A stretch of DNA of 17,607 nt. Source: a virus (Duplodnaviria; Heunggongvirae; Uroviricota; Caudoviricetes). Made by a program: the position numbers and the translations under genes. The DNA lies in IMG/VR virus record IMGVR_UViG_2896607866_000008, positions 1-17,607 of that record. One strand, written 5' to 3'. The notes under the pieces are model-generated. The model ran no database searches, was not told the origin of the DNA, and saw only the letters and a program-made list of their open reading frames with translations. Below, one piece after another: positions 1 through 17,607 of the stretch; position 1 is the stretch's first letter; the number at the start of each line of letters is the position of its first letter.

Positions 1-163
1 CACAACATCCGAGGACAGCATCGTCCGCCAGCCTACAGAAGTCCGGAAAGCCATGGAAGGTCGTTGGGAGGAGGTACGAATTCTATCATGCAAAAAATAC
101 GTAAAATCGATAACGCCTAGAAATCATTCAATACTCGCACTATCGAAAGTTTACCAGCCAACC

Positions 164-192
164 GCGGCACGTTCCTGCATACGACGTGCCGC
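164..192. other. Perfect 9-bp inverted repeat (GCGGCACGT / ACGTGCCGC) with an 11-nt loop, just past the stop of the 201-824 gene; possible terminator or protein-binding palindrome
   Basis: Read directly: 164-172 is the reverse complement of 184-192. No strong U-tract on either strand. Confidence 0.3.
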
Positions 193-200
193 AGCTTCTG

Positions 201-824
201 TTATTCCACGATAAAATTCCTAACCGAATTCAAATCCTTCAGACTATTCAGCTCTTCCTTCAGCTCCCGCTGACGGCGATAAATCTCATCGTTGCGATCG
301 ACCTGCGCCTGCACCATTGCTGCCGCCAGTTCTTCCAGTTCCGGCATCGACAGTTTCACCTGCTGATTATCGGCATCGCTCCACGCCATATGTGTTTGTG
401 CTGTGACAGATTTTGCCAGCATGACTACCGGGGACAGGCGGCCCAGTGAGTCGGGACCAGCATTCCAGATACGACCGTTCCATTCAAACGTGAACGGCTT
501 CGCCTCCTGTTCTGCGCGCCATGCTTCAATTTCCTGACGTCTGGCCTCTCTGGCCGCTTCCAGCATTTCTGGTGTCACAGTGAATGGGGCTATCTCACCC
601 CATTTGCCGCTTTGCAGTTCCTGCCAGATTTGCTGACCCGTCGGAGCGACATCATCAGCGGTGGCTGTGTAGGGGACTGCCTGGTCCCTGTCGTCAAAAA
701 AAACGTCACAGTCTACTGCGCCACTTTCGGTATAACGGGGATTAATGATTTTTTTAATTTCCACGATGCATTCCTCACGATGTGCGAATAAAAAGCCCGG
801 GCATTGCGCCAGAGACATGTGCAT
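201..824 (-). CDS. Putative phage tail fibre assembly/chaperone-like protein (207 aa)
   Basis: Long ORF immediately downstream of a side-tail-fibre-like gene; acidic coiled C-terminal half typical of fibre chaperones. Not a clear lambda Tfa match, so the family is inferred mainly from position. Start could be M1 or M3. Confidence 0.45.
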   Translation of the reverse strand: MHMSLAQCPGFLFAHREECIVEIKKIINPRYTESGAVDCDVFFDDRDQAVPYTATADDVAPTGQQIWQELQSGKWGEIAPFTVTPEMLEAAREARRQEIEAWRAEQEAKPFTFEWNGRIWNAGPDSLGRLSPVVMLAKSVTAQTHMAWSDADNQQVKLSMPELEELAAAMVQAQVDRNDEIYRRQRELKEELNSLKDLNSVRNFIVE

Positions 825-1128
825 CCGGCACCCCGGACAGGGCGCAATATGACCCCGGTAATGAATGCTCTGAACATCCCGTAATGAAAAATTGTGGGGA
901 TGCTATATACGTTCCGGTGGGAGTACTGGGCACTGAAATCCCCACCGGTCCCAGTCGTGAGCCTCTGTATGACTGCCCCCTGACAAGTCTGATGACTTTA
1001 TCACCGTCAGCTTCTCCCTGGTACGCAACAATAATCAGCCCGCCAATGTCAGGGTCTCCCCATCTGTTGCGGACAGAGCTCGCCACGATTCTGTAAATAA
1101 TATCTTCTGTGGTTATATTTATTTTCAC
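775..1128 (-). CDS. Hypothetical 117-aa ORF with GTG start overlapping the stop of the upstream fibre gene; possibly the out-of-frame C-terminal remnant of a once-longer Stf
   Basis: The ORF begins at a GTG overlapping the TGA of ORF 1125-2039 and ends inside the start of ORF 201-824. No recognisable motif. Confidence 0.2.
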   Translation of the reverse strand: MKINITTEDIIYRIVASSVRNRWGDPDIGGLIIVAYQGEADGDKVIRLVRGQSYRGSRLGPVGISVPSTPTGTYIASPQFFITGCSEHSLPGSYCALSGVPDAHVSGAMPGLFIRTS

Positions 1129-2039
1129 CCAGTCAGTCTGGATATGGGCCAGTAGCAGTAGCGGGTGTGATAAATGGGGCCGTTAATGCCGTAAAAAGTA
1201 AGGGATTTGGCTCTGTACCGCGGTTCTGTTGTCTCAGGGCGTGCATCAGTCCACCGGATGCTGAGCCCCCCTTCAAACCGTGTGTCGGGTATGATGATGC
1301 CGTAGGGGCCAGCAACGGAATATTCACCTGGCAGCGCATTCCTTACCCAGGCCAGGAAATCACTCTTAGTGTCAAAACGGATAACATCTTCAGGCAGAAA
1401 AGCACACCCAAAGCCGAATGCGCCGGGTATCGCCAGACGGCCTTTTGTCCGGTCGTAAATGTCGCTCTGTGCTTCCATCGTGGCCGCACTTTTCAGCCCC
1501 AGATTATCCCGGGACTTCTGTTGTGCCTTTTCGCCTGCTGCTGCGATTTCAGACAGATGGTTAGCCGTTTTCAGGGTGCCGGTCAGCGCAGCATCAATGT
1601 CATTTTTGGCCTGTTCTGCTGCGCGGGCATAACCTGCGGCTGCCGCCACATCCTGCGCCGTCTGCTGTGCGTTTCCGGCTGCGGCCCCGGCGCTCTGCTG
1701 CGCCTGCGCCACCATTTCCTCAAAGCGTTTGACGACATCCGGTTTCAGGTCGCCCTCATCAGGAGCAATCAGAAAGTCATTCAGCGTGCCGGGCTTTGAG
1801 TCCTCATATACAGCAATGTCGCCAACGTTGTACTCGTTGCGCCAGTCCTGTTTCAGATACACACCATATTTTCCAGTCCGCGCATGGAAACAGTATTCAC
1901 CATCGTTTCCTGTCATCACATCAGCAACAGTGTTCATCACCACTTCCGGGGTGTTTACCCGGGATTTCAGAATAATATGGTATCCGGACATGGGGATACC
2001 TGCGCCATCAGTCAGCGCACCTGATATCACTACAAACAT
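1125..2039 (-). CDS. Side tail fibre protein, lambda Stf-type N-terminal domain (304 aa, much shorter than full-length Stf proteins)
   Basis: N-terminus MFVVISGALTDGAGIP...VYEDSKPGTLNDFL matches the conserved prophage tail-fibre N-terminal domain of lambda Stf / Rac StfR (MAVKISGVLKDGTGKP...VYEDSQPGTLNDFL), followed by an Ala/Gln-rich coiled region. Full-length Stf proteins are several hundred residues longer. Confidence 0.65.
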   Translation of the reverse strand: MFVVISGALTDGAGIPMSGYHIILKSRVNTPEVVMNTVADVMTGNDGEYCFHARTGKYGVYLKQDWRNEYNVGDIAVYEDSKPGTLNDFLIAPDEGDLKPDVVKRFEEMVAQAQQSAGAAAGNAQQTAQDVAAAAGYARAAEQAKNDIDAALTGTLKTANHLSEIAAAGEKAQQKSRDNLGLKSAATMEAQSDIYDRTKGRLAIPGAFGFGCAFLPEDVIRFDTKSDFLAWVRNALPGEYSVAGPYGIIIPDTRFEGGLSIRWTDARPETTEPRYRAKSLTFYGINGPIYHTRYCYWPISRLTG

Positions 2040-2062
2040 TGTTTTTCTCGCGATAAATTAAA

Positions 2063-2608
2063 TCAGGAAGAACCTTCCGGAGAGGCGGGCCATTCAATGG
2101 CGTTGTATGAGGATTTATCAGTGATGGTGCTGAAATCCATCGCCTGCAGCGATTTCGCGTAAATACGACAGGCTTTCAGCTTTTCTTTATCTTCGTCGCT
2201 GATTAACCCCAGCAGCAGGTCTTCTTCCCATTCCCCTGTCCGGGCACTGACCTGAGCCAGAAGGGCATCACGCTCATCTTCCGCTTTGAGTCTGTAGTCA
2301 AAGACAAATTCATCATTGCGGTAAAACCAGTAACCCGGCGCGGTAATCCGTCGGTTAGCGGTAATATCAGGAACTTCAATAACACTGGCATTGCGTGGCT
2401 CGATGCCTGTCACATCCTTACCGACCCACACCACGCGACCATCTCCGGTGTAAGCTATTTTTATTGTGTCGCTGGCGAAATTCTTCAGCTCTTCATACCA
2501 GTTTTTTCCGTCTTCTGAAAAAAGCCAGGAGACCGAATATCGTTTTGTCATCTGATATTGTTCTGCTGTTTTCGGATTACCCGCAGTAATATTTTTTAAA
2601 TGCAACAT
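2063..2608 (-). CDS. Tail fibre assembly protein (Tfa family chaperone, 181 aa)
   Basis: N-terminal MLHLKNITAGNPKT...WLFSEDGKNWYEE and C-terminal ...IEWPASP are characteristic of Tfa chaperones (lambda Tfa ends DIEWPALP). It sits directly downstream of the tail fibre gene. Confidence 0.75.
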   Translation of the reverse strand: MLHLKNITAGNPKTAEQYQMTKRYSVSWLFSEDGKNWYEELKNFASDTIKIAYTGDGRVVWVGKDVTGIEPRNASVIEVPDITANRRITAPGYWFYRNDEFVFDYRLKAEDERDALLAQVSARTGEWEEDLLLGLISDEDKEKLKACRIYAKSLQAMDFSTITDKSSYNAIEWPASPEGSS

Positions 2609-2610
2609 TG

Positions 2611-3996
2611 TTAAATACTCGCTACGTTATACCAGGTGCCATTAATCAGTTTTTGCAGTGGTCGGTAATACACACCGTCAACGTTATCCGCTGAGTTACG
2701 GCCGGTATCCGATATCGCCATCCCTGACAGCCCGTGTCCCGAAGGTGCGCAAAATCTCCACGAAACGGTGTTACTGCCGGGGCTGTAATACATTTCATGG
2801 CCATACCGTACATCCTGTACCCCCTCTGTTCGATATTTATAGCGGGCATCGAAGTTTCCGTAATTTAACGGAATTACCTGTCCGTTAACAGTGAACACTA
2901 TGCTGTTATCCGGGTTTCTCTGGCTGAAAAAATGCCAGCCTGAATCATCGCCAAGCTCTGCAACAACAGGCCTGGATGGATTACCCCACAAATAAAACGC
3001 TGCATTTTTCGTGGAGTTGTTGGCGCTGGATAACGTGAATTTTCTGGCAGTTCCGGCCTGAATATTCTTAAAAGCAATAGCCACTCCATTCTGAAAGCGG
3101 AATACACGCTGACTATTAGCATAAACATCCAGAATACCGTCTCCATTCTGTTTAAATCCGGTGTCATTATCACCAAGAACAATTGAATTCCCCCCCAGGG
3201 CGTTCTGAACGCCGATACCCAGCGCACCATTGACCTGCGAACCACCGCCAACAGACACTTTATGCGACATGGATATTTCACCCGTCCGCAAATTAATGGT
3301 GAACGGGCGCAGGGGACCAATATCGCCATTTTCCCCCTGACCTTCACTGGTGGGAATAAGGTGCAGGCACTCTTCCGAACGACGAAAAATCAGGCCAAAA
3401 GCTTCGTTGAAAATCCTCAGCGCATTAACACCACGGATTTTCAGCTCTCCGGTTATTTTATCGCCTTCCCGATGAACATAGCGTTGATCTGACTGCTCTT
3501 TACTGTAAACCTGAAGATTATCCCGTGCCGTCCCTTTATTCTGAAGGTCTGACAGATTGTTCTTCTGCCGCAGGAATATCCTTTTCGGATCCTCAAGAAG
3601 ATTTACCCAGCCCGCACTGTCGGAGCCTTCAGGATCGGTCAGGTTATCGTCTGTGGTATTCAGCCAGACCGCTGTTGTTGCGACTCCGGCGAGAATGGCT
3701 CCTTTTGCATATCCACCAATGGCCCCCGCAAAACCGGCATTATACGTGTACAAACCGCCAGCCTGGGCGAACCGTATTGCTGCGGTAATATCGTACATCA
3801 GACCGTTAAAATCCTTGCCGTGTGGCGGTATACCTCCCGCTGAGACCGCTGTCATGGTCACCGGAGGAAAACCTGAATCATACGCAGCATTACCGCTCTC
3901 TCTGGTCTGCTGTGTCGCCTTGTCCGGGATACGGTTTTTATCTCCGGTACTCGCAAAGGGGACCGCCAGCTGGCGGGGTTTATCACTGGCCTTCAT
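2611..3996 (-). CDS. Tail fibre protein with P2 gpH-like C-terminal receptor-binding region (461 aa)
   Basis: C-terminal block [50 protein letters not shown] ... [11 protein letters not shown] matches the conserved distal tail-fibre domain of P2 H-type fibres as I recall it. Its position between the baseplate I-like gene and Tfa fits. Confidence 0.7.
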
Positions 3997-4587
3997 TACG
4001 GGACTCCTTTAAAACTACTGAAACATAAACACCCGGCGGGGATGGCAGTGCACCCGACGACTGGATAATCGCCAGTTCTGCCAACGAGAGCGCGGACTCA
4101 AAGACGTAACTCATCCTCAGCCCACCATTATTCAGAACATAAGCCCGCCGTTTTTTTCCGAACATAAATCTCAGCATCCGGTTAATATCCGGAACGGAAC
4201 AGTCAGTAATGTTCGACATGGCTTTCATCAGTATCAGCCGCCGGTATACAGCATCAGACAGGTCAACAGTCCGGGTATCCGATTTTCCGTTGTAAAACGG
4301 TGCCTGATTAAACGGACAGGGATCATCCATTACCGGGGTGTCCATCCTGGACTCGCTGAAGCCAGGTAATTAAAATCGTCCTTTACCGTCAGCCGGCGAC
4401 TGACACCCACAATCTTTCCCCAGACATCAAGACCATACTTTTCTGCGGTATCGATGTTCCAGATAAGACCATAAAAATCACTGATAAAACTGTCGGGGGA
4501 AAGCGCTGCGTTAAAGCTGTTAATGAGGGCATTGAGTCGGGGGCTGGCAGCATACTGCGCAAGCACAGTGGCAGCCACATTCTGCAC
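3983..4587 (-). pseudogene. Baseplate/tail protein I-like (Mu gp48 / YmfQ-like), split into 85-aa and 120-aa ORFs by a frameshift near 4330-4345
   Basis: Two adjacent ORFs in different frames overlap by 16 nt; together about 200 aa, the size of YmfQ/gp48-type proteins, and located exactly between the J-like gene and the tail fibre. The upstream frame ends ...SPGWTPR-stop and the downstream frame starts MDTPVMDD. Confidence 0.5.
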
Positions 4588-4588
4588 G

Positions 4589-5830
4589 TTATGCCTCCTG
4601 GAGTTTCACACTGATATCCGACACATCCAGAACCGGAATCTCATCTATCCCGAAAGTGACAGCCGTTGTCCATGACGAACCGTCACGGCTCACAGTAAGG
4701 CCCAGAATATCAATATGTTCCGGATCGGTTTTGTAAATGCCGGCATAGTAGCGCCCGGCAGAGACAACAGAGGCAACCCTTGCCCGCAGACCACCATCTG
4801 TACCATTAAATGCGTCCAGCACGGATTGCTGTACCTGTCGGGTAATATCTGAAGGCAGGTAGTCACTTTTTTTCAGAGTCACACTGACATGCAGACTGAC
4901 GGGTTTGAGTGTCTGCCAGCTGATCACGTATTCAGGATACGGCGGATCGTACTCCTTATCTGCAACAGTGAACGTTGTGTTGCCATTCATATCAATACCC
5001 GGCGGAGCCTTACGCCAGATGGCCGCCGCGATATCTGCCGGGCTGCCGCCGTACACGCCAACATAAAGCGAACCGGGTGTTAATGGATACTGACTGACTC
5101 CGGCTTTTTGTTCTGTTTTTTTCGGATTATGGGTGACGTAAACATCCACCACGTTTTCCACCGTGGAGAGTATTTCACCCCGGATGGCTTCCAGAATATT
5201 CCGGGCATTACGGGCAACTGAATTACGTCGGCGGTTTTCAAAGTCCGCACGGGTTTCCTCATCGCTGCCCGGCACACCGGCACTGGCGTTAGTGACACCT
5301 GACCAGCCAGGTATTGCCTTATAAATTTTATTCAGCGTCCCCACAGGACAGCCGACGGGGCCGGTGGACAAATTCAGAAATACCGCATCAACCTGCCCTG
5401 ATGCGCCGATAGTGACGTCTGACTGACTGACATACTTATAACCGGCCTCATCCTGCGCCATACTGCCCGCCGGGATCAGCGTGCCAACCAGCCCGGTACA
5501 GGTCGCTGTTACTGTCGTACCTGTGGCCCCGCGGCGCTCCAGGAAATAAATCCTGCCTATTGCATCCTGAAAGCGACCACTGGAAAAGTCAGGGTTGATC
5601 TGGTTAACGATATACAGCAACTGATCGTTTTTATCCGCAATAATGGCGCTTTCGCTGGATGCAAGTTGTCCCTGCGGACTGCTCAGACTGGTACTCATGG
5701 CCCCGCCCAGCGCCGCCGAAAAATCAGCAAGCCTGCCGCTCAGAATATCCGCTTCATCCGGCACATTCAGCCCGCTATCCGAAATCTGTACAGCGGGCAC
5801 TGCGGTAGAAAAAGATTTATTTTCACTCAT
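4589..5830 (-). CDS. Baseplate J-like protein (Mu gp47 / P2 gpJ family, 413 aa)
   Basis: Size, position after a W/gp25-like gene and before the I-like gene, and overall resemblance to baseplate J family proteins. ATGA-type overlap with the upstream gene. Confidence 0.7.
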   Translation of the reverse strand: MSENKSFSTAVPAVQISDSGLNVPDEADILSGRLADFSAALGGAMSTSLSSPQGQLASSESAIIADKNDQLLYIVNQINPDFSSGRFQDAIGRIYFLERRGATGTTVTATCTGLVGTLIPAGSMAQDEAGYKYVSQSDVTIGASGQVDAVFLNLSTGPVGCPVGTLNKIYKAIPGWSGVTNASAGVPGSDEETRADFENRRRNSVARNARNILEAIRGEILSTVENVVDVYVTHNPKKTEQKAGVSQYPLTPGSLYVGVYGGSPADIAAAIWRKAPPGIDMNGNTTFTVADKEYDPPYPEYVISWQTLKPVSLHVSVTLKKSDYLPSDITRQVQQSVLDAFNGTDGGLRARVASVVSAGRYYAGIYKTDPEHIDILGLTVSRDGSSWTTAVTFGIDEIPVLDVSDISVKLQEA

Positions 5831-6183
5831 AGCAGTACCGTAAAAATGTCATTATTGGTATCTGTAATACGCAGCACACCTGTTACTGTCCGGGTTTGAT
5901 CAGCTGTGACCAGGCAGACAGCGGCGCTCACGGTCGGCAGTTTAAGTGCTTCCTGTTGCAGAGTGGCATTCACCAGTTGTTTGCCGGGCCAGTGTCCGAG
6001 GATGCGTGGCCAGTAAGGTATGCCAGCCGTTGAGTCGTACCAGCACTCCCCCAGAAAAGTACTGCACGCACACGCCACATCCTGAGCTACCGCATGGGGA
6101 TTATCAGTAATGGCAAGATTTCCGGTATCATCAAGCAGGATATCCCATGTCCCGGTGTCAAGAAGAAGTGATCGTGACTGCAT
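5827..6183 (-). CDS. Baseplate wedge protein (GPW/gp25-like, Mu gp46-like, 118 aa)
   Basis: Small ORF between the spike V-like and J-like genes, 4-nt overlap with the J-like gene; conserved gene order V-W-J-I-H-G. Confidence 0.55.
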   Translation of the reverse strand: MQSRSLLLDTGTWDILLDDTGNLAITDNPHAVAQDVACACSTFLGECWYDSTAGIPYWPRILGHWPGKQLVNATLQQEALKLPTVSAAVCLVTADQTRTVTGVLRITDTNNDIFTVLL

Positions 6184-6195
6184 GTTTTCTCCTGT

Positions 6196-6873
6196 TTACC
6201 GGGGTCCCTGCGTGGTTGAGCCGCCGGACTCAACGCCGCCGTGAACGTGGTTTCCAAAATCAATACCCCCGATGTTCGAACCGCCGGAAAGCCTGGACTG
6301 CCCGGTAACGTCAAGCCCCTTACTGACGGCGGTATCGCCGTTCAGCGCAATTTGTGGTGAATTAACGGTGAAGCTTTTCGGCGCATTAATCACACCCTCA
6401 GGCGCGGATATCTCCACTTTCCAGGGAGATACAATCCGTATCTGGTTGTCATCAAATACCACAAACTGGACGGGATCACCGTTGAGCACGCCACCCAGCC
6501 AGATGGCATCAGCATAATTATGGGTACGCTTTGATCCCGGCATCGCAGCCTGACGCGTGGCTTTTACCGCACTGATATCCCGATCGCAGATGGCAAGAAA
6601 ACCGATATCCCCCACATGTGGCGGCATAATCACCGCATTACCGCCCCCCTGTAGTCGCCATACGGGAATGTTATAAATCACCTCATGTTCAACCGGGGAA
6701 CCGTCTGCTGCAACGCCCATTACCATCGGTCGGGCCTCAATAAATCCCTCTTCCACGGCTACCACCCGTCCCAGAGTGATAAACGCATGACGTCCGAGAA
6801 ACTGCCGCAGCATAAAGTCCTGTGCATTGATTTCGCTGTTCACGTCTGTCGGGTTACTGAGTGGTTGTGCCAT
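6196..6873 (-). CDS. Baseplate spike / assembly protein V-like (Mu gp45-like, 225 aa)
   Basis: Gly-rich C-terminus with HxH motif (GIDFGNHVHGGVESGG) typical of phage central spike proteins; position upstream of the W-like gene. Confidence 0.65.
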   Translation of the reverse strand: MAQPLSNPTDVNSEINAQDFMLRQFLGRHAFITLGRVVAVEEGFIEARPMVMGVAADGSPVEHEVIYNIPVWRLQGGGNAVIMPPHVGDIGFLAICDRDISAVKATRQAAMPGSKRTHNYADAIWLGGVLNGDPVQFVVFDDNQIRIVSPWKVEISAPEGVINAPKSFTVNSPQIALNGDTAVSKGLDVTGQSRLSGGSNIGGIDFGNHVHGGVESGGSTTQGPR

Positions 6874-7723
6874 TTTCTTCAGCCCTCATCATGGTACAGT
6901 TGGAACTCCACGGACCGCCCACGGTTCGCGAAGTAATGGTGTGTATCACCCCTGTGATCGTATAATCGCCCGTCATATCAGGCAGTGACGATTCCAGATG
7001 CGCTGGCCTGCCAGTAAAGAGATCGGGGCAGAATATCGTGGTGGCGCTGAGTCCGGTCATGGTGTAAACCGGATAGCCAGTCAGTCCGTGATCCGGCGAA
7101 ATCAGTACCGGCGGAATATTCCGGTTCTGCCCTTTCGGCCAGATGGTGACTTTCTCCACATTCCCCAGATCAATGTTAATATCGGCGGCTGAAGCGACAT
7201 CCAGCATTTGTTGTACAACATTACCGGAAAAATGCGGGTCAGACAGACTGCGGCTGACCCCCTGGTTTTCAAATCCAAGCCCGACAGTTGACGCCAGCGC
7301 ACGGATAATATCTGCAACCGCAACATCGCCCTTTGCGCTGAAATCTGCCGCCGGCTGATTACGCAGATTAAAATGAATCTGTCCTGTCAGAATGAGCGGA
7401 ATATCCGGCGCCTGGTTGTAGTCGGCGTATGCATCAGTAATATCACCTTCAAAAATAAGCCGCCCGTCGGCCCACAGCCGCATTTTATTTGCGGTACTCT
7501 GCTCCTGTCGCCACACACCGCGCCAGCTTAAATTCGTCATATGCGCCGGTGACATTCCCCAGATATACAGCGTGATTTGTGTACCAGCCACCCCTCCATA
7601 TACGGCAATACTGGCAAAACAGCTTGCGTCGGTAATGGTCAGCATATTGCCCTGGCCATTACCAAACGTTCGTCCGTCTGAAAGAGTGAACTCCACCGTT
7701 ATTTTATGTTGTCTGTAGCTCAT
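6854..7723 (-). CDS. Phage tail/baseplate-associated protein (possible hub-like, 289 aa)
   Basis: Long ORF in the tail module immediately upstream of the spike gene, 20-nt overlap with it. No diagnostic motif recognised; assignment is by context. Confidence 0.4.
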
Positions 7724-8022
7724 ATCAGTTCCTCAGGTAACAGCCAGTAGAGCCGGTACCGGGATCCGAGCCCCCGCCAGTCAGGGTCACTATTCCCCTC
7801 CGTGTCGGTAAAAAACAGGTCCCCCTGAAACGGCAGGTATCCGTACCGGACAATCCGGTTATTATTCAGACACAGCACGCCATACAGGCACGGTTCACCA
7901 TTAACAATGATATCGATATACATCCCCGTAGTACGCTGATTCAGGCGAATGGTGCAGACCTGAGCGCCCAGTGTCACCGTAAACTGCTGGGCTTTAACGG
8001 GAGATAAAACAATTTCCAGCAT
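7720..8022 (-). CDS. Hypothetical phage protein (100 aa)
   Basis: ORF with a 4-nt ATGA-type overlap to the downstream 289-aa gene, suggesting translational coupling. Confidence 0.4.
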
Positions 8023-8288
8023 CAGGTGATCCCCCTGTTCGTGGCGCTTCGTCTGTCAGCGTCTGACGGTTGTGTCACCGACGCCGTAACTGGCTGCGTT
8101 TTAACCGATGCGGCCCCTTTTGCTTTATCGTTGTCCGTGGGAGACGACTTATCCGTACTTCCCACTGACACCTCTCCTGTATTCATTACGGTCTGAAATA
8201 CCGCAGTAACCGTCAGTAAGGTCGGACCACTCATCGTCTTTACGCGGATCGCTACGCCAGTGAAACGTAAACACCGGGATTTTTCCAC
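8022..8288 (-). CDS. Small hypothetical ORF with low-complexity Ser/Thr/Asp-rich tail; start uncertain (M1 8288, M19 8234 or M35 8186)
   Basis: ORF in a different frame overlapping the 3' end of the truncated terminase ORF. It may be a small YmfR-like gene or an out-of-frame remnant. Confidence 0.25.
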
Positions 8289-9018
8289 TGTGCCGCTTCT
8301 GTGCGAAGGGGTTGTTCATACCGTTAACCGATGAGAGATCGATACGACATCGGGTTGTCTGGGAAAGCGCGGCATCAATAAGTAATGGTCGCTGGAGAAA
8401 AGCAGCCTCATCCACAAAATAAAGGGTCGTACGGTCACCACGACCGATATTATCGCCAGCCTCACCTTTGATAACCGCGCCAGTTTCAGGAAACTCAACA
8501 CGCATATATGGCGCGTGCTTCTTCTCGCTCCACGAACCGCGAAACTCTACAGGTAGTGTTTCCACGAACTTGCGCGCCTTCCAGAACAATGCTTTCGGGT
8601 CACCGGTGCTGTCGACGTATTCCTCTTTACGGGAGCCGAAACCGATAACCATTTCTTTGTTGAAGAGACAAAGCGAGCAGGCCAGTCCGATCGCGGTCCA
8701 ACTGAGCCCCATTTCACGGGATTTTTCGGTAATACCATTCTCCCGATTGCTCCAGCGTTTCATAATCCAGTGGATCCACTCCTCCTGCTTAGGGAAGAGT
8801 AAAAACGGAATGGTCACCGGCAGGCCATAATCAATATTACGCGGGTCCGTTGTCATGCCCCAGTCGATAATGAACTGAGCCGGGTTGGTACGGTAAAACT
8901 GTTTTAGTGCAGGCAATATTTCAGGATTCTGGCGAATGCGCTGTAGGCGTTCCATCCGCCATTCAAAAACCATCTGGTAATCAGGATGTTTAAAATCGAA
9001 GGGGAATGGTAACGGCAT
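8149..9018 (-). CDS. Terminase large subunit, N-terminal ATPase domain only (289 aa; nuclease domain absent), likely a truncated remnant
   Basis: Walker-B-like LYFVDEAAF and downstream SSVNG motif typical of TerL ATPase domains. The ORF stops after 289 aa with no nuclease domain, and the next genes are baseplate genes rather than portal/capsid. Confidence 0.55.
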
Positions 9019-9020
9019 AC

Positions 9021-9253
9021 TTAGCCCATCATTTTTCTATACACCTCTGCGGCCTGCTCAGGCGTTAATTTGGTAATTTCTGTTCTGACTGGTCCTCCGT
9101 CAGCGCCAGTCACTTCATTTTTGACGTTGTCTTTAAACGCCTGAACAGAAACATGGCGCCCAAGCAACTCAAGGTTTTTAACCTTATCAGGCCATTTGAT
9201 TTTCTTCAGAAGTGCGGCGCTATCTGCGGATACCATCTCCACGACATCCATTC
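9021..9253 (-). pseudogene. 3' fragment (about 77 codons) of a phage gene upstream of terminase large subunit, 5'-truncated by IS911
   Basis: The reading frame runs from inside the IS911 left end (so the N-terminal 24 codons are IS-encoded) to a stop 3 nt before the TerL start. Identity unknown; a small-terminase or DNA-binding protein is a guess. Confidence 0.35.
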
Positions 9254-9325
9254 TGAAGTGGCACACTGAATTTGGCCACCTGAACAGAGGTGATATGCTC
9301 ACCTCAGAACAACACAGGTGCTCCA

Positions 9326-10494
<1,169 letters not shown>

Positions 10495-10669
10495 CCACTT
10501 CAATCCCCCATGTCACATAGCTTGAACTGAATCAGATCCTTCACAAGCTGCTCAGCCTTTTTAATGGCCTTCTTCTCTTTCTTCCGACGAGTCATGAGAG
10601 CGCTATGAGGTAGCCTGAGTTTAACGGACACTCCTTCCTGAAATAGAATGGCATCAGAAGGAGCTAATA

Positions 10670-10972
10670 ATGAGCAGAAAAACCCAACGTTACTCTAAAG
10701 AGTTCAAAGCCGAAGCTGTCAGAACGGTTCTTGAAAATCAACTTTCGATCAGTGAAGGCGCTTCCCGATTATCCCTTCCTGAAGGCACTTTAGGACAATG
10801 GGTTACCGCCGCCAGAAAAGGGCTCGGTACTCCTGGTTCCCGCACGGTGGCTGAACTGGAATCTGAAATTCTGCAACTGCGTAAGGCGTTAAATGAAGCT
10901 CGCCTTGAGCGAGATATATTAAAAAAAGCAACAGCGTATTTTGCACAGGAGTCGCTGAAAAATACGCGTTAA
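10670..10972 (+). CDS. IS600 transposase OrfA (100 aa)
   Basis: MSRKTQRYSKEFKAEAVRTVLENQLSISEGASRLSLPEGTLGQWV...; an A7G slippery run lies near its 3' end. Confidence 0.9.
   Translation: MSRKTQRYSKEFKAEAVRTVLENQLSISEGASRLSLPEGTLGQWVTAARKGLGTPGSRTVAELESEILQLRKALNEARLERDILKKATAYFAQESLKNTR
10921..10928 (+). promoter_or_regulatory. IS600 putative -1 frameshift slippery run (AAAAAAAG)
   Basis: Read directly near the end of orfA, with orfB in the -1 frame downstream; frameshifting is inferred by analogy with other IS3-family elements. Confidence 0.5.
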
Positions 10973-11007
10973 TCGAACAATGGCGACAACAATTTCCCAT
11001 TGAAGCG

Positions 11008-11826
11008 ATGTGTCAGGTATTTGGTGTATCCAGGAGCGGTTATTACAACTGGGTACAGCATGAACCCTCAGACAGAAAACAAAGTGATGAGCGGCTAAAA
11101 CTGGAGATTAAGGTGGCACATATCCGCACTCGCGAAACATATGGAACCCGGCGGCTCCAGACGGAGCTGGCAGAGAATGGCATCATCGTTGGTCGTGACC
11201 GACTGGCACGTCTTCGTAAGGAGCTAAGGCTACGCTGTAAGCAGAAACGCAAGTTCAGAGCGACTACGAACCCGAACCACAATCTGCCAGTTGCGCCAAA
11301 TCTGCTGAACCAGACGTTCGCTCCTACAGCACCAAATCAGGTCTGGGTGGCGGACCTGACGTATGTTGCCACACAGGAGGGATGGTTGTACCTCGCTGGC
11401 ATCAAAGATGTTTATACGTGCGAAATTGTCGGCTACGCCATGGGAGAGCGCATGACAAAAGAGCTGACAGGTAAAGCCCTGTTTATGGCGCTCAGGAGCC
11501 AGCGCCCACCTGCCGGGCTAATCCACCACTCTGATCGAGGTTCACAGTACTGCGCATACGATTACCGGGTCATACAGGAGCAGTCTGGTCTGAAAACATC
11601 AATGTCGCGTAAAGGTAACTGTTACGACAACGCTCCGATGGAAAGCTTCTGGGGAACGCTGAAAAATGAGAGCCTGAGCCACTATCGTTTTAATAACCGG
11701 GATGAAGCCATCTCAGTAATACGGGAATACATTGAGATTTTCTACAATCGTCAGCGTCGTCACTCTCGTCTGGGGAATATCTCCCCGGCAGCCTTCAGGG
11801 AAAAATATCATCAGATGGCTGCTTAA
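11008..11826 (+). CDS. IS600 transposase OrfB (DDE domain, 272 aa from first Met)
   Basis: ...NQVWVADLTYVATQEGWLYLAGIKDVYTCEIVGYAMG...HHSDRGSQYCA... typical IS3-family DDE transposase. Confidence 0.9.
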   Translation: MCQVFGVSRSGYYNWVQHEPSDRKQSDERLKLEIKVAHIRTRETYGTRRLQTELAENGIIVGRDRLARLRKELRLRCKQKRKFRATTNPNHNLPVAPNLLNQTFAPTAPNQVWVADLTYVATQEGWLYLAGIKDVYTCEIVGYAMGERMTKELTGKALFMALRSQRPPAGLIHHSDRGSQYCAYDYRVIQEQSGLKTSMSRKGNCYDNAPMESFWGTLKNESLSHYRFNNRDEAISVIREYIEIFYNRQRRHSRLGNISPAAFREKYHQMAA

Positions 11827-12142
11827 AAAAAGAACAAATGGTAGTGTCCGCTATTGCCAGTACACCTCAGTAATCCATTTCGACTATAACTGACAGGTCA
11901 TCACGACGTATGACTGCGTATTTGCTACTAAATAGTTTCTTTATTTTTTCCACGATGCCTCCAAGTTTATAAGTACAAACGGTTATATCCACATAGAGAC
12001 AAAAATATTAATCTGAAAAACATTTATTTCACGCCGTATATTTGATTGTTTAATGTGCAAGTACAATGACTTTTATTTTTTGTTGTGTATATAATCAAAT
12101 ATATGGTTATTTTTCACCCTGCGTATTCAGCACGCAACAAAA

Positions 12143-12162
12143 AACCCGCCGAAGCGGGTTTA
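12143..12162 (-). terminator. Rho-independent terminator at the 3' end of the hok mRNA
   Basis: AACCCGC-CGAA-GCGGGTT hairpin; on the minus strand it is followed by TTTTTTGTTG, on the plus strand only by TTT. Confidence 0.6.
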
Positions 12163-12228
12163 GTGCGGGTGCGTTGAGGATGCCTGACACATGAGAGGTG
12201 GCGAGGGATTTCTCCCCCGCCTGGTCTC

Positions 12229-12384
12229 TTACTCCTCAGGTTCGTAAGCTGTGAAGACAGCGACCTCCGTCTGGCCGGTTCGGATTCGTACCTCGCAGAG
12301 GTCTTTCCTCGTTACCAGTGCCGTCACTATGACGGTTAAACAGATGACGATCAGGGCGATTAACATCGCCTTTTGCTGCTTCAT
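12229..12384 (-). CDS. hokD: Hok/Gef family type I toxin (51 aa), HokD/RelF-like
   Basis: Translation MKQQKAMLIALIVICLTVIVTALVTRKDLCEVRIRTGQTEVAVFTAYEPEE read directly; matches the Hok/Gef consensus and, to my recollection, E. coli HokD (RelF) specifically. Strong SD (AGGAG) 8 nt upstream. Confidence 0.85.
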   Translation of the reverse strand: MKQQKAMLIALIVICLTVIVTALVTRKDLCEVRIRTGQTEVAVFTAYEPEE

Positions 12385-12441
12385 AGCCTGCTTCTCCTTG
12401 CCTTTCGGCACGTAAGAGGCTAACCTACATTTGTGAGACAT
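12229..12441 (-). CDS. Mok-like overlapping reading frame (70 aa, in-frame N-terminal extension of Hok)
   Basis: An in-frame ATG 19 codons upstream of the hok start (MSHKCRLASYVPKGKEKQA-) with a GAGG SD; the same architecture as mokC/hokC, which share a stop codon. Confidence 0.55.
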   Translation of the reverse strand: MSHKCRLASYVPKGKEKQAMKQQKAMLIALIVICLTVIVTALVTRKDLCEVRIRTGQTEVAVFTAYEPEE

Positions 12442-12723
12442 AGATTGGGCCTCAGATTAATGTTAAGCGTCTTGCAGGACGCGTAATGTTAACTGGGGCT
12501 TTTCTCTGTCTGCCTTACAGTGGCATGCCCGAGGCAGACAGCCTCAAGCACCCGCAGCAATCTTACCGATACCGATAAGAAAACGCTATTTTTTATTGCC
12601 AGCACCTTCTATCCAGGCTAATTTATCTGCGTCAGAACGGCGCAATGCGCTCGCCTGAGATACGTTTACTTGCCATGGTAACAACAGGTAACGGCAATTG
12701 CTGTTTCTGTTTTGTTTCCTTCA

Positions 12724-12757
12724 AAAACCCCGGACCATCAATCCGGGGTTTTTGTTT
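12724..12757. terminator. Bidirectional rho-independent terminator
   Basis: AAAACCCCGG-(9-nt loop)-CCGGGGTTTT flanked by A-runs and T-runs on both sides; it lies 2 nt downstream of the 27-aa ORF stop on the minus strand. Confidence 0.6.
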
Positions 12758-12758
12758 G

Positions 12759-12842
12759 TTAACCCCAACGGCAAATCGAATACACCACCAGCGCCACCGC
12801 CATCGCAATTCCTACCGTGGTGAATGCCTCAGGCCAGGTCAT
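12759..12842 (-). CDS. Small hydrophobic peptide (27 aa, MTWPEAFTTVGIAMAVALVVYSICRWG), translationally coupled to the DUF551 gene
   Basis: Not in the ORF track (too short). Its ATG overlaps the TGA of the upstream gene (AATCAATGACC), a GGAGGT SD sits 6 nt upstream, it has a single predicted transmembrane helix, and it is followed at once by a terminator. Confidence 0.35.
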   Translation of the reverse strand: MTWPEAFTTVGIAMAVALVVYSICRWG

Positions 12843-13204
12843 TGATTCACCTCCTGCGGTGGTTCCGGTAGCGGCATCCAGTGAGTTGAGCTCTCTACTT
12901 CAACGCCGTCTTTGTCCACAAAAGCCATCTTATTCCCGCCACGAGTGGGGCAAAAAACCTTATCCCAGGAACCGGGGAATACATTCCCGAGATCATCGAG
13001 AAGAATCACATCGCAATATTCAGCAGGAACTGCATCACTACAGCTTATCCAGCCAGCCAGAGTTACCGGAGAGTTGCCAGCCTTACGCATGGCCATTTCC
13101 ACGATTTCAACCATATCTCCTGGTGGAATTTTACAAAGTTGCCCAATACATTTCTGCTGCCTGGCATATTCGAGAATGTGCTCCAATTTGGTTCGATTAA
13201 TCAT
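12839..13204 (-). CDS. DUF551-family phage protein (121 aa)
   Basis: C-terminal ...THWMPLPEPP motif characteristic of DUF551 proteins of lambdoid prophage early regions; TAATG overlap with the upstream gene. Confidence 0.55.
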   Translation of the reverse strand: MINRTKLEHILEYARQQKCIGQLCKIPPGDMVEIVEMAMRKAGNSPVTLAGWISCSDAVPAEYCDVILLDDLGNVFPGSWDKVFCPTRGGNKMAFVDKDGVEVESSTHWMPLPEPPQEVNQ

Positions 13205-13869
13205 TATTTATCTCCCTTAAGCATGGCAGCGCGGCAGGCGTTCCAGCCATCAACATAATCAAACGTATTACTATCGTTTGGCCCGATTTCATCCGGCACT
13301 ATCGGCTCTGGTTGGATAGTGACGTTGGCAAAGGCAGCACGCAAACCGGTTTTAATTTCTTCGATTTCATCAGAGCCAAGCGATGAATCTGACAGTGCGT
13401 GATGGAATGCGTAAGCCATGTCGTCGTTTACTGCAACCGGCACTGCCGGCGCTGCGTAAAGCGGTGTTATATCTGCCCGAAAATCACATGCTTTATGCAG
13501 TCGTACCCAACGCTCAACTTCCGCTTTGTCAAAATATATAGCAGTGAACGTATTAGATTCCTGGTCAACTTGAGTAAACGTCACCTTCCACGCTACAGCT
13601 ACGGCTTTCCATCCATCAGGTTGTCGCATTCGCGGGGCAGCATAAAGCTCATGCATTCCATCAGGCAGCGAGTGACCCACATACTCACCGAACCCGTCAA
13701 TACACATGCCCCCATCTTCAACAATGCATTCCGCTACAGGCTCTGCTTCCAGTGATGCCAGAGCGATAAGCGCCAGTTCACGAATTTCACCGCCGTCTAT
13801 ATCGTCAATATCATCGCGGCCAGAAATGTTAGCCAGCCATTGCAGTCGCTCTTTGGTAATAGTGGTCAT
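13204..13869 (-). CDS. Hypothetical phage protein (221 aa, acidic, two LYAAP-containing segments)
   Basis: ORF tightly coupled on both sides (ATGA overlap with HNH upstream, TAATG with DUF551 downstream); SD GAAGGGG. No recognisable catalytic motif. Confidence 0.5.
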   Translation of the reverse strand: MTTITKERLQWLANISGRDDIDDIDGGEIRELALIALASLEAEPVAECIVEDGGMCIDGFGEYVGHSLPDGMHELYAAPRMRQPDGWKAVAVAWKVTFTQVDQESNTFTAIYFDKAEVERWVRLHKACDFRADITPLYAAPAVPVAVNDDMAYAFHHALSDSSLGSDEIEEIKTGLRAAFANVTIQPEPIVPDEIGPNDSNTFDYVDGWNACRAAMLKGDK

Positions 13870-14231
13870 GCCGTAGCCCCTTCTTGATATTTTTCAAACC
13901 AGAACACAACCGGGTCAGATTTCATTTCAACCAATCCCATACGAACCAGCGCTTTGCCTTTCCCGGACGCAAGGAATTCACGACGACCATCACTGATAAT
14001 TCGTCGATAATCTTCCAGGCTACTGCAATGCTTGTGCAGATTGCATGGGTGGCATTCTGGTACCATGTTGGATATATCGTCACGTTCCTGGTGAAGCATA
14101 TTTCCATCAAAACGAATGACCGGTTTTACATGGTCTGCATGCCACTTTTCGCCAAGTTCGCAGCCGCAATAAGCGCAGCGACCACCGAACTTCATGCGCA
14201 GTTCTGCACGTTGTTTTTTCGTCAGTGCCAT
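13866..14231 (-). CDS. HNH endonuclease (121 aa from MALTKK; the ORF track shows a longer 151-aa frame from 14321)
   Basis: CAYCGCELGEKWHADHVKPV....CHPCNLHK is an HNH motif with two Cys pairs. The start at 14231 is preferred because of an AAGGA SD and the immediately preceding stop of the 72-aa ORF. Confidence 0.75.
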   Translation of the reverse strand: MALTKKQRAELRMKFGGRCAYCGCELGEKWHADHVKPVIRFDGNMLHQERDDISNMVPECHPCNLHKHCSSLEDYRRIISDGRREFLASGKGKALVRMGLVEMKSDPVVFWFEKYQEGATA

Positions 14232-14232
14232 A

Positions 14233-14451
14233 TCAGCTTTCCTTATACGGATTAATTTTATTGTGCAGTGTGTTGAATGACGCCCATACCACGTCGTTAT
14301 ACAATTCAATAACTGGCTCAATTATTTTTCCGATTATCCAGACAAAAATTAGCGGGGATATCGGTGTCATCAACACGATAAACAGAATGAGAAACAGGAA
14401 TTCTGTTGTTCTACTCTTTCGCGGATATTTTTTTCTAAATAATGTAACCAT
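14233..14451 (-). CDS. Small predicted membrane protein (72 aa), coupled to the HNH gene
   Basis: Hydrophobic stretch FLFLILFIVLMTPISPLIFVWIIGKII; its stop is 1 nt before the HNH ATG. The SD is weak, so coding status is uncertain. Confidence 0.35.
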   Translation of the reverse strand: MVTLFRKKYPRKSRTTEFLFLILFIVLMTPISPLIFVWIIGKIIEPVIELYNDVVWASFNTLHNKINPYKES

Positions 14452-14457
14452 TCATTA

Positions 14458-14473
14458 CCGCCCTTTCGGGCGG
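14458..14473 (-). other. GC-rich stem-loop (CCGCCC-TTTC-GGGCGG) in the intergenic space between the truncated upstream gene and the 72-aa ORF
   Basis: Perfect 6-bp stem with 4-nt loop read directly; AU-rich but no clean U-tract after it on the minus strand. Confidence 0.3.
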
Positions 14474-14543
14474 TCTCCTGATGATTTGAGGGTGCAGAAA
14501 TCCCTCCGGTTAAGGATTAAATTTTTAACAGTGCTAAATTTAA

Positions 14544-14769
14544 TTATTCAGTTCTGGATTTTGTCGCCCTGCGTATCCGCGCTTTCGCATTACGCTCAAT
14601 CTGTATCAGCTTTTCTATATTTCTCCGCCTTTCCTGTTCCTCCTGGCGCAATAGTCTTACATCATCTGCCAGTCTGGTTTCTCTTTTTGCCACAGAGAGC
14701 ATCCAGTCAAACGGCTCCACAACCGCACCGCAGATTTTACAGCGGACCTGACGCTCTTTTTCGTCAACC
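14544..14769 (-). pseudogene. 3' fragment (75 codons) of an unknown gene, 5'-truncated by IS911 copy 2
   Basis: Open frame ...VDEKERQVRCKICGAVVEPFDWMLSVAKRETRLADDVRLLRQEEQERRRNIEKLIQIERNAKARIRRATKSRTE-stop runs directly out of the IS911 right end at 14770. Confidence 0.35.
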
Positions 14770-14777
14770 TGAAGTGG

Positions 14778-15931
<1,154 letters not shown>

Positions 15932-16000
15932 TGGAGCACCTGTGTTGTTCTGAGGTGAGCATATCACCTCTGTTCAGGTGGCCAAATTCAGTGTGCCACT

Positions 16001-16857
16001 TCAGGTATTTGGTGTATCCAGGAGCGGTTATTACAACTGGGTACAGCATGAACCCTCAGACAGAAAACAAAGTGATGAGCGGCTAAAACTGGAGATTAAG
16101 GTGGCACATATCCGCACTCGCGAAACATATGGAACCCGGCGGCTCCAGACGGAGCTGGCAGAGAATGGCATCATCGTTGGTCGTGACCGACTGGCACGTC
16201 TTCGTAAGGAGCTAAGGCTACGCTGTAAGCAGAAACGCAAGTTCAGAGCGACTACGAACCCGAACCACAATCTGCCAGTTGCGCCAAATCTGCTGAACCA
16301 GACGTTCGCTCCTACAGCACCAAATCAGGTCTGGGTGGCGGACCTGACGTATGTTGCCACACAGGAGGGATGGTTGTACCTCGCTGGCATCAAAGATGTT
16401 TATACGTGCGAAATTGTCGGCTACGCCATGGGAGAGCGCATGACAAAAGAGCTGACAGGTAAAGCCCTGTTTATGGCGCTCAGGAGCCAGCGCCCACCTG
16501 CCGGGCTAATCCACCACTCTGATCGAGGTTCACAGTACTGCGCATACGATTACCGGGTCATACAGGAGCAGTCTGGTCTGAAAACATCAATGTCGCGTAA
16601 AGGTAACTGTTACGACAACGCTCCGATGGAAAGCTTCTGGGGAACGCTGAAAAATGAGAGCCTGAGCCACTATCGTTTTAATAACCGGGATGAAGCCATC
16701 TCAGTAATACGGGAATACATTGAGATTTTCTACAATCGTCAGCGTCGTCACTCTCGTCTGGGGAATATCTCCCCGGCAGCCTTCAGGGAAAAATATCATC
16801 AGATGGCTGCTTAAAAAAAGAACAAATGGTAGTGTCCGCTATTGCCAGTACACCTCA
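16001..16857 (+). mobile_element. IS600, 5'-truncated partial copy (lacks about the first 408 bp including the left end and orfA); junction with the IS911 left end at about 16001-16003
   Basis: Sequence from GGTATTTGGTGTATCCAGGAGCGG onward is co-linear with copy 1 from 11013 onward; the right end ...GTACACCTCA is at 16857. Confidence 0.85.
16004..16814 (+). pseudogene. IS600 orfB lacking its orfA partner and frameshift context (the ORF-track protein MAKFSVPLQ... has an IS911-derived chimeric N-terminus)
   Basis: The OrfB sequence is identical to copy 1 from QVFGVSRSGYY onward; the upstream 26 nt of the ORF belong to the IS911 end. Confidence 0.7.
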
Positions 16858-17293
16858 GGACGCCTGCATCAAAACGTTCAGAAACGACATCGGTCAAACC
16901 ATAATCAATGGTAAGCTGAATATCAATTTCAGGATGCGATTTCAGGAATGTGCGCATGGCTGGTAACAATATCGTTTTTGCTGCATGTTCTACAGTAGTA
17001 ATACGTATTGTCCCGGATGGGCGGTTCTGCAGATCGCTCAGGGATGTCAGGGCAGAATCTATGTCATGCAATATAGGGCCAAGAACAGACAAAAGATGCT
17101 CGCCCGCTTCAGTGGGTACAACGCTGCGCGTGGTTCGCGTCAGAAGCCGCAATCCCAATCGTTCTTCTATACGGCGCACTATCTGGCTTAAAGCTGACTG
17201 CGCCATGCTCAGGCGGGCTGCTGCGCGAGTGAAGCTACGCTCCTCTGCAACGACGACAAACGCCATCAGATCAGCGATTTCTTCACGCTTCAT
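16858..17293 (-). pseudogene. LysR-family transcriptional regulator, 3'-truncated by the IS600 insertion (about 145 native codons remain)
   Basis: N-terminal HTH MKREEIADLMAFVVVAEERSFTRAAARLSMAQSALSQIVRRIEERLGLRLLTRTTRSV is the classic LysR signature; the frame runs into the IS600 right end at 16857, giving a chimeric tail. Confidence 0.75.
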
Positions 17294-17430
17294 TCAGTAT
17301 CTCCATACAATCTATTAATCATTTAAATGATAGGTCTAATCATGATTTAGGGTCTAATCAACTTAATGATCAATATCTATAGTGATATCACCAACCGTCA
17401 AAACGAACCGACAACTCCATGAGGAACTGA

Positions 17431-17566
17431 ATGATGAATAATAAAGTCAGCTTCACTAACAGCAATAATCCAACCATCTCTTTGTCTGCAGTGATCTATT
17501 TCCCTCCAAAATTTGATGAAACCCGTCAGTATCCGGCAATTGTGGTATCTCACCCAGGTGGGGGCG
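17431..17566 (+). pseudogene. Dienelactone hydrolase-like / alpha-beta hydrolase gene, 5' 45 codons only, interrupted by IS2
   Basis: MMNNKVSFTNSNNPTISLSAVIYFPPKFDETRQYPAIVVSHPGGGV, then the reading frame enters the IS2 terminal repeat. Divergent from the LysR gene. The hydrolase family assignment is from memory of similar N-termini. Confidence 0.5.
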
Positions 17567-17607
17567 TGGATTTGCCCCTATATTTCCAGACATCTGTTAT
17601 CACTTAA
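17567..17607 (-). mobile_element. IS2 terminal inverted repeat (right end, element continues beyond the window)
   Basis: TGGATTTGCCCCTATATTTCCAGACATCTGTTATCACTTAA matches the IS2 right inverted repeat as I recall it; only 41 bp fall in the window. Confidence 0.7.

Follow-up and report, generated by a model that had tools for sequence, protein, structure and literature searches.

The window analysed here, a term that we use for the whole stretch, comprises 17,607 nucleotides (nt) of Caudoviricetes DNA (positions 1 to 17,607 of IMG/VR record IMGVR_UViG_2896607866_000008). We focused on a block of five consecutive minus-strand open reading frames (ORFs) at 12759-14451, which a first-pass annotation of the sequence had put forward as a candidate undescribed defence, exclusion or anti-defence system. 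The five genes, in their order of reading, and the hairpin that closes the block are as follows.

14233-14451, minus strand: DUF4014 small membrane protein, 72 amino acids (aa) (Pfam PF13198, phrog_1832)
13866-14231, minus strand: stand-alone HNH (beta-beta-alpha-Me) nuclease, 121 aa (PF01844, phrog_2118)
13204-13869, minus strand: acidic modular protein, 221 aa (piecewise PHROG matches, recombined relatives)
12839-13204, minus strand: DUF551 protein, 121 aa (PF04448)
12759-12842, minus strand: single-pass membrane peptide, 27 aa, MTWPEAFTTVGIAMAVALVVYSICRWG (conservation, substitution pattern)
12722-12754, no strand assigned: bidirectional-looking intrinsic terminator hairpin closing the block (fold, flanking A- and T-runs)

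Read directly from the sequence, every junction in the block overlaps or abuts: ctGAtATGg (TGAtATG) between the DUF4014 and HNH genes, gcATGAcc (ATGA) between the HNH and 221-aa genes, aaaTAATGatt (TAATG) between the 221-aa and DUF551 genes, and caATGAcc (ATGA) between the DUF551 gene and the 27-aa ORF. This confirms the series TGAnATG, ATGA, TAATG and ATGA described for the five ORFs in the first-pass annotation. The start of the HNH gene was placed at ATG 14231 because all homologues begin with MALTKKQR; TTG 14321, the start given by the ORF lister, was rejected on the same ground. The downstream hairpin, AAAAACCCCGG-n7-CCGGGGTTTTT (12722-12754), folds with -25.5 kcal/mol (z = -3.1) and looks bidirectional, being flanked by an A-run and, on the opposite side, by a T-run. 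As set out below, the block is probably a remnant, stranded by insertion sequences (ISs), of a lambdoid prophage and derives from its mosaic accessory region of nin type; its genes are independently exchangeable.

The five families share a neighbourhood and are not a set inherited as a unit. We searched 5426 complete Escherichia coli genomes with megablast, defining the whole block as at least 80% of 12600-14600, and obtained the following counts.

Whole block: 2 out of 5426 genomes
DUF4014 gene: 1012 out of 5426 genomes, at 80-100% nucleotide identity
HNH gene: 703 out of 5426 genomes (385 near full length)
221-aa gene: 246 out of 5426 genomes in pieces, 2 whole
DUF551 gene: 654 out of 5426 genomes in pieces, 2 whole
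27-aa ORF: 1301 out of 5426 genomes

Co-occurrence of the gene set across prophages, the check suggested in the first-pass annotation, therefore failed to reveal a set, with the whole block in 2 out of 5426 genomes and its parts in 246-1301. Neighbourhoods in IMG/VR, counted only in loci with enough flank, gave a similar picture of loose association. In HNH-centred loci, DUF4014 was present in 74% (directly upstream), any DUF551 in 39% and the full 221-aa gene in 14%. HNH was found in 47% of DUF4014-centred loci and in 6% of those centred on DUF551, while loci centred on the 221-aa gene contained HNH in 33% of cases and any DUF551 in 67%. Homologues scattered and never together had been named as the outcome that would speak against a system. 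That outcome was found in spirit: the families do neighbour each other, only not as a set.

In intact relatives, the genes of the block occupy the position of the nin region. The Rac-like lambdoid prophage of E. coli FDAARGOS_944 (L001) is 98.9% identical to 11869-14769 of the window. It carries, in order, a repressor/cro-like gene, YdaT, YdaU, an ATP-binding protein, DUF977, an IS, a hypothetical gene and then DUF4014, HNH, the 221-aa gene and DUF551, followed by hok, DUF1367, DUF1364, DUF1133, ORF6N, tRNAs, holin and lysozyme. We read DUF1133 of this prophage as a Q-like antiterminator, because the Pfam Q family also matches DUF1133 in Yersinia loci. The HNH gene, the DUF551 gene or the 27-aa ORF lies between O/P-type replication genes and NinG/RusA/Q in FDAARGOS_944, A8, W12-1, Sakai Sp11, Klebsiella and Yersinia. 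In the Klebsiella locus (L316), 15 successive junctions overlap by 1-11 nt from the replication genes to Q, and the Yersinia loci show similar overlap. Start/stop overlap is, thus, a property of the whole nin-type region and is not distinctive of these five genes. The tight coupling in the block is uninformative, because overlaps run through the entire region in relatives. Given these region-wide overlaps and the lack of co-inheritance, a reading of the five genes as one functional system is not supported.

The features expected of a lambdoid nin-type region were found together: position before Q (in intact relatives), co-directional overlapping small genes and mosaicism at gene boundaries. 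The block shares with the nin region of lambda (ren-ninA..I) and P22 (ninA..Z) its place between the replication genes and Q in intact relatives, a content of co-directional, small and mostly non-essential genes, stop/start overlaps and gene swaps at boundaries. It differs in that its five proteins include no named Nin protein of lambda or P22, and in that parts of it are also present on the leftward side, in the exo-xis region of Shiga toxin (Stx) phages, where the DUF4014-HNH sub-block has been found. The first-pass annotation had allowed for an ordinary lambdoid early-region cluster of exo-xis type; the cluster is indeed an ordinary one, but its main site is the nin position in the rightward operon. 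Our literature search returned nothing linking exo-xis with this HNH and no mention of DUF4014, and the block genes are not mentioned in a published co-transfer study of lambdoid phages.

Gene exchange can be followed most closely at the junction after DUF4014, AAGGAAAnCTGAnATG, which comprises the last DUF4014 codons and the next start. This junction is conserved, while the gene starting at its ATG varies among loci, with at least five different genes found there. They include HNH (MALTKKQR...), members of the 221-aa family (MTTITRE...) and other, unrelated genes (MATLTKKE..., MATLQEL..., MTELTKEQ... and MTITTKEQ...). Since the gene that starts at this conserved ATG differs across loci, HNH is optional: where present, it is inserted precisely between DUF4014 and a gene of the 221-aa family. 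Its nucleotide identity is at least 95% in 701 out of 704 records, compared to 80-99% for DUF4014. The identical HNH protein (WP_001229296.1) occurs in E. coli UTI89, where parts of the block stand beside yfdPQRS in a CPS-53-type prophage and HNH comes after yfdP, yfdQ, yfdR, yfdS-like and yfdT-like genes. A 99%-identical copy (L019) was detected in the exo-xis region of the Stx2a phage ArgO145, next to ead/Ea22-like genes. In Shigella sonnei, a single 194-aa ORF (P0242) contains both the DUF4014 and the HNH Pfam domains. This fusion is probably the product of a lost stop codon (the TGA of the TGAtATG junction) and illustrates how easily neighbouring genes fuse in such an array.

Among the five products, only HNH has a recognisable function, as initially proposed. 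It matches PF01844 with 23.3 bits (cutoff 21.4) and phrog_2118 with an E value of 4e-55, and it also matches PHROGs annotated as 'endonuclease VII' (PHROG 1035 and 2914; E values of 2e-11 and 1.5e-7). Its score against the NinG Pfam family is 18.8 bits, under the cutoff of 25.4, and some of its homologues score as NinG (PF05766). Residues C19, C22, H31, D33, H34, N55, C60, C63, N64 and K67 show no variation among 55 homologues with identities as low as 49%. We read the protein as an intact beta-beta-alpha-Me nuclease with a four-cysteine zinc site (two CxxC pairs) that appears to have been kept under selection. The family, stand-alone and about 120 aa long, is found across Enterobacterales and beyond. 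The small stand-alone phage HNH nucleases of PF01844 (PHROG 2118, 1035 and 2914) share with it the beta-beta-alpha-Me motif, two CxxC pairs, the invariant D-H...N...N and the length of about 120 aa. A search of the PDB by sequence gave no significant match, and Pfam revealed no additional domain in the 121 aa, including no recognisable sequence-specific DNA-binding domain. HK97 gp74-type HNH proteins act in cos cleavage. The HNH of the block differs from them in having no adjacent terminase, which makes such a role unlikely. It would be a self-contained nuclease with a role in DNA processing or recombination, or with a selfish, homing-like lifestyle. The description of a nuclease flanked by two small membrane proteins is accurate for the window, but it holds for this rare arrangement alone.

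The 221-aa protein has no Pfam match; it matches six PHROGs piecewise. Four segments make it up, namely A (residues 1-46), B (47-79), C (80-140) and D (141-221), and they end in ...EAEPVA or ...LYAAP linkers. Its relatives recombine these segments and fuse them to DUF551, Ead_Ea22 (PF13935) or DUF550 domains. In E. coli A8, for example, a single 347-aa ORF after HNH holds module D together with a DUF551 domain. Over 49 residues, module A is 37% identical to the N-terminus of YfdT from K-12 (E value of 1e-4). An AlphaFold2 model of the protein, built from a 45-sequence alignment, reached a mean predicted local distance difference test (pLDDT) score of 51, with values of about 70 only at residues ~90-140. 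Such a model does not permit a fold search, and its low confidence is consistent with a chain of linked short modules. In UTI89, a stretch of ~350 nt that separates the HNH gene from a DUF551 pseudogene (L312, 4001-4351) matches modules A and D, and no coding sequence is annotated there.

The DUF551 protein matches PF04448 over the full profile (positions 1-68 of 68; 69.9 bits, threshold 22). Its N-terminus is helical and variable; its C-terminal beta domain is conserved, ends in HWMPLPEPP and is confidently predicted in the structure model. The profile and structure searches envisaged at the outset for these two proteins were productive in part: they placed DUF551 in Pfam and the 221-aa protein, piecewise, in PHROGs, but neither protein had a significant sequence match in the PDB, and a structure search with the predicted model found no significant neighbour of the DUF551 beta domain. 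According to published work, DUF551 is a portable domain that both YfdS and the Ea22 variant 2 of Stx phages contain, and Ea22 is pro-lysogenic (PMC10834534). In our Pfam search, YfdS also scores as DUF551. Either YfdS or YfdT is required, together with YfdQR, for the inhibition of DnaA-dependent replication initiation seen on overexpression (PMC4776307).

These relationships connect the two proteins to two known systems without placing them in either. Modules B and D of the 221-aa protein are common to relatives that bear Ead_Ea22 (P0043 and P0054; for PF13935 see PMC10834534). Like the Ea22/Ead proteins, the 221-aa protein is a mosaic, acidic and multi-segment protein; ead/Ea22-like genes are neighbours in ArgO145, and Ea22 variant 2 ends in DUF551. 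It differs from them in lacking a PF13935 match and the Ead/Ea22 coiled coil, so it does not qualify as a member. The yfdQ-yfdR-yfdS-yfdT cluster of CPS-53 in E. coli K-12 (PMC4776307) has in YfdS a DUF551 protein of the same size as that of the block and in YfdT an N-terminus resembling module A, and UTI89 has the identical HNH after yfdS-like and yfdT-like genes. In contrast, the window lacks YfdQ (DUF2303) and YfdR (HD domain, the DnaA-binding component), the DUF551 protein of the block has no BLAST-level similarity to YfdS, and the gene order is different; the block is not a yfdQRST cluster. In our reading, the 221-aa protein is a bead-on-a-string chain of four short modules, drawn from a pool that also builds YfdT-like, Ead/Ea22-like, DUF550 and DUF551 proteins, and the DUF551 protein carries the portable C-terminal domain of YfdS and Ea22 variant 2. 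By analogy, we infer that both may be early host-modulating proteins that bind host factors and not parts of a nuclease-based defence. This shared pool of short modules should help in reading 'hypothetical' proteins of E. coli and Shigella prophages.

For the 27-aa ORF, 15 distinct nucleotide variants encode the identical peptide. Distinct substitutions comprise 43 synonymous and 52 non-synonymous changes, a synonymous share of 43/95 compared to the 25.6% expected (p about 3e-5). In diverged variants, the hydrophobic character and the two ends, WPEAF and CRWG, are retained. Because the substitution pattern is of the coding type and the peptide and its ends are conserved, we conclude that the ORF represents a real small membrane-protein gene. 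It is usually the last in the block, often after the DUF551 gene and before hok/sok. Roughly one in four complete E. coli genomes has it, yet it is not annotated in any of the four records checked (FDAARGOS_944, ArgO145, W12-1 and Sakai Sp11).

Around the block, further features were identified.

14457-14478, minus strand: GGAG and 7-bp GC-rich hairpin with a GAAA tetraloop (fold)
14544-14720, minus strand: C-terminal remnant of an upstream phage gene, 58 codons (phrog_1621 profile positions 64-121 of 134)
14770-16003, minus strand: ISEc52-like IS3-family element (93.7% identity to the ISEc52 of L001; rve and HTH_Tnp_1 domains)
12229-12553, minus strand: complete hok/mok/sok toxin-antitoxin locus (HOK_GEF, PF01848; Rfam sok RF01794, 118 bits)

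DUF4014 itself matches PF13198 almost end to end (profile positions 1-71 of 72; 90 bits, threshold 23.2, E value of 1.3e-25). Between a GGAG and its ATG lies the hairpin ACCGCCC-GAAA-GGGCGGT (14474-14457), which ends 5 nt before the ATG. The unit of GGAG, hairpin and ATG stays with DUF4014 where the sequence farther upstream differs, and the GGAG-hairpin unit is absent where DUF4014 is coupled directly to an upstream gene (GAGTGATGTG). With this hairpin, the Shine-Dalgarno sequence may come to lie near the start codon of DUF4014. As the hairpin travels with this start, we tentatively read it as serving translation initiation or RNA stability. Two other identities were considered for the hairpin and rejected: a terminator, as it has no U-tail, and a nut-like boxB, as it is not at a nut position. 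Two hairpins, thus, bracket the block as first described: the terminator-like one downstream and, upstream, a stem-loop that is not a terminator.

Lambdoid prophage DNA of the type of the block is limited to 2.9 kb of the window (11869-14769). To its left lie IS600-type ORFs (10670-11826) and, farther left, an ISEc52-like copy (9254-10502, plus strand). To its right, the ISEc52-like element at 14770-16003, whose transposase ORFs are co-directional with the block, cuts the block off from the prophage replication genes and promoter, and homology to L001 stops at 14769. The phrog_1621-family gene, intact in L001 (357 nt, 118 aa), is shortened here by the IS starting at 14770. The window no longer contains the canonical nin genes, Q or the promoter, which IS elements have removed. 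A consensus scan found no sigma-70-like promoter on the minus strand of 12100-14900, so the native promoter of the block has been lost in this genome, and we infer that any expression would come by read-through from the co-directional IS. The hok/mok/sok locus is a neighbour that lies outside the cluster; here, as in other relatives including Sakai Sp11, it follows the terminator directly. Judging by IS600 and the closest protein matches, the DNA probably comes from Shigella or E. coli.

Taken together, these observations make it probable that the five ORFs are the tail end of the accessory segment of a lambdoid prophage of the Rac/Qin/Sakai-Sp type. The genes would be translationally coupled passengers of a delayed-early operon, and the junctions between them would have two uses, providing the next gene with a ribosome-binding site and offering short homologies at which alternative genes are swapped; HNH would be a small active nuclease, either recombination-associated or selfish. 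Some points weigh against this reading or limit its reach. DUF4014 directly precedes HNH in nearly three-quarters of HNH loci, and downstream of a Klebsiella HNH orthologue (60% identity) there is once more a DUF551 protein, so that some genes of the block may be functionally coupled in pairs. The IMG/VR and RefSeq samples are rich in near-identical E. coli prophages, and percentages drawn from them are descriptive and not phylogenetically independent. The promoter scan relied on a crude consensus, and the PADLOC version used in the defence searches described next (2023) contains no anti-defence families. Our confidence in the functions of the individual proteins, all of them proposed by analogy, is also much lower than in the architecture.

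We considered three other explanations, all of which centre on the nuclease. It is possible, though we would not expect it, that HNH is an accessory nuclease of recombination or replication that works alongside the nin recombination functions, like Rap/NinG, RusA or T4 endonuclease VII. The matches to PHROG 'endonuclease VII' families and the homologues that belong to PF05766 are in line with such a role, as is the occurrence of HNH among NinB (DUF1367), NinX and NinG genes in Yersinia prophages. However, its similarity to NinG is weak and falls under the Pfam cutoff (18.8 versus 25.4 bits), no structure-specific DNA-binding element could be shown, and prophages with this HNH also have a separate NinG or RusA, which would make it redundant. 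A selfish gene of the homing type, cutting HNH-less alleles near the boundary between DUF4014 and the next gene, being copied in during repair and promoting local mosaicism in the process, is improbable. The pattern that it predicts is in place, as HNH is present or absent exactly at the conserved junction, is more uniform than the flanking DUF4014 (at least 95% identity in 701 out of 704 records compared to 80-99%), and recurs in three contexts (nin region, exo-xis region and yfdPQRS cluster) with its catalytic residues invariant. But the protein is only 121 aa long and shows no recognisable sequence-specific DNA-binding domain, no target site was identified, and orthologues at 47-73% identity keep their size and occupy varied nin and early-left sites, which fits an ordinary phage gene conserved by purifying selection equally well.

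The idea closest to the first-pass annotation, very improbable and the least likely of the three, is a prophage exclusion or abortive-infection module in which DUF4014, with or without the 27-aa peptide, acts as the membrane sensor or anchor controlling a nuclease that degrades incoming or host DNA. It draws on the frequency of DUF4014 directly upstream of HNH (74% of HNH-centred loci), on the weak similarity of HNH to PtuB and retron HNH effectors, and on other accessory loci that adjoin the block (hok/sok in the window, relE/parE-type pairs in relatives). Yet only 47% of DUF4014 loci have HNH, and UTI89 has the identical HNH without DUF4014; Klebsiella and Comamonas orthologues and one out of three Yersinia loci have no DUF4014-like neighbour, while the other two Yersinia loci have an unassigned 70-aa ORF upstream. 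The HNH matches in PADLOC are weak and partial, below any system definition; the best was to PtuB, with 28 bits over 74 residues of a 227-position profile. PADLOC detected no partner protein (no PtuA ATPase) and no match for DUF4014, DUF551 or the 27-aa peptide, and its single match for the 221-aa protein, to JetA, was at chance level (E value of 0.015, 12 bits). Matches to IscB and retron-HNH models in NCBIfam were far under their cutoffs. Known defence systems (Septu PtuAB, retron PtuB-type effectors and PDC-M01) were rejected, as the HNH matches are weak and partial and no partners were found. An antitermination-dependent lytic operon is usually not a site of defence genes expressed in the lysogen; the genes lie inside such an operon, and their expression in a lysogen is not expected. 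If the idea were true, the module would be a movable membrane-linked nuclease cassette that lambdoid prophages carry in one or the other early operon and that today's defence catalogues do not yet list. The position of the genes, their non-linkage and the weak PADLOC matches favour an ordinary cluster over an undescribed defence system.

Read as a stranded piece of a mosaic nin-type region, the block yields a chiefly negative result: start/stop overlap, a nuclease and small membrane proteins belong to the normal grammar of lambdoid accessory regions. The small HNH gene, nearly invariant and gained or lost precisely at a gene boundary, is a candidate driver of local mosaicism.

Elsewhere in the window, the inverted ISEc52-like copies at 9254-10502 (plus strand) and 14770-16003 (minus strand), ~94% identical to ISEc52, flank IS600, hok/sok and the block in a layout that resembles a composite transposon. 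A contractile-tail prophage module occupies 1-9000, with baseplate J, hub, spike, tail fibres and a lytic transglycosylase (RefSeq annotation of near-identical E. coli loci); it is unrelated to the lambdoid remnant and is broken up by IS elements. At 16811-17293 (minus strand), a LysR-family ORF of 160 aa contains HTH_1 and the start of the substrate domain and is probably truncated.

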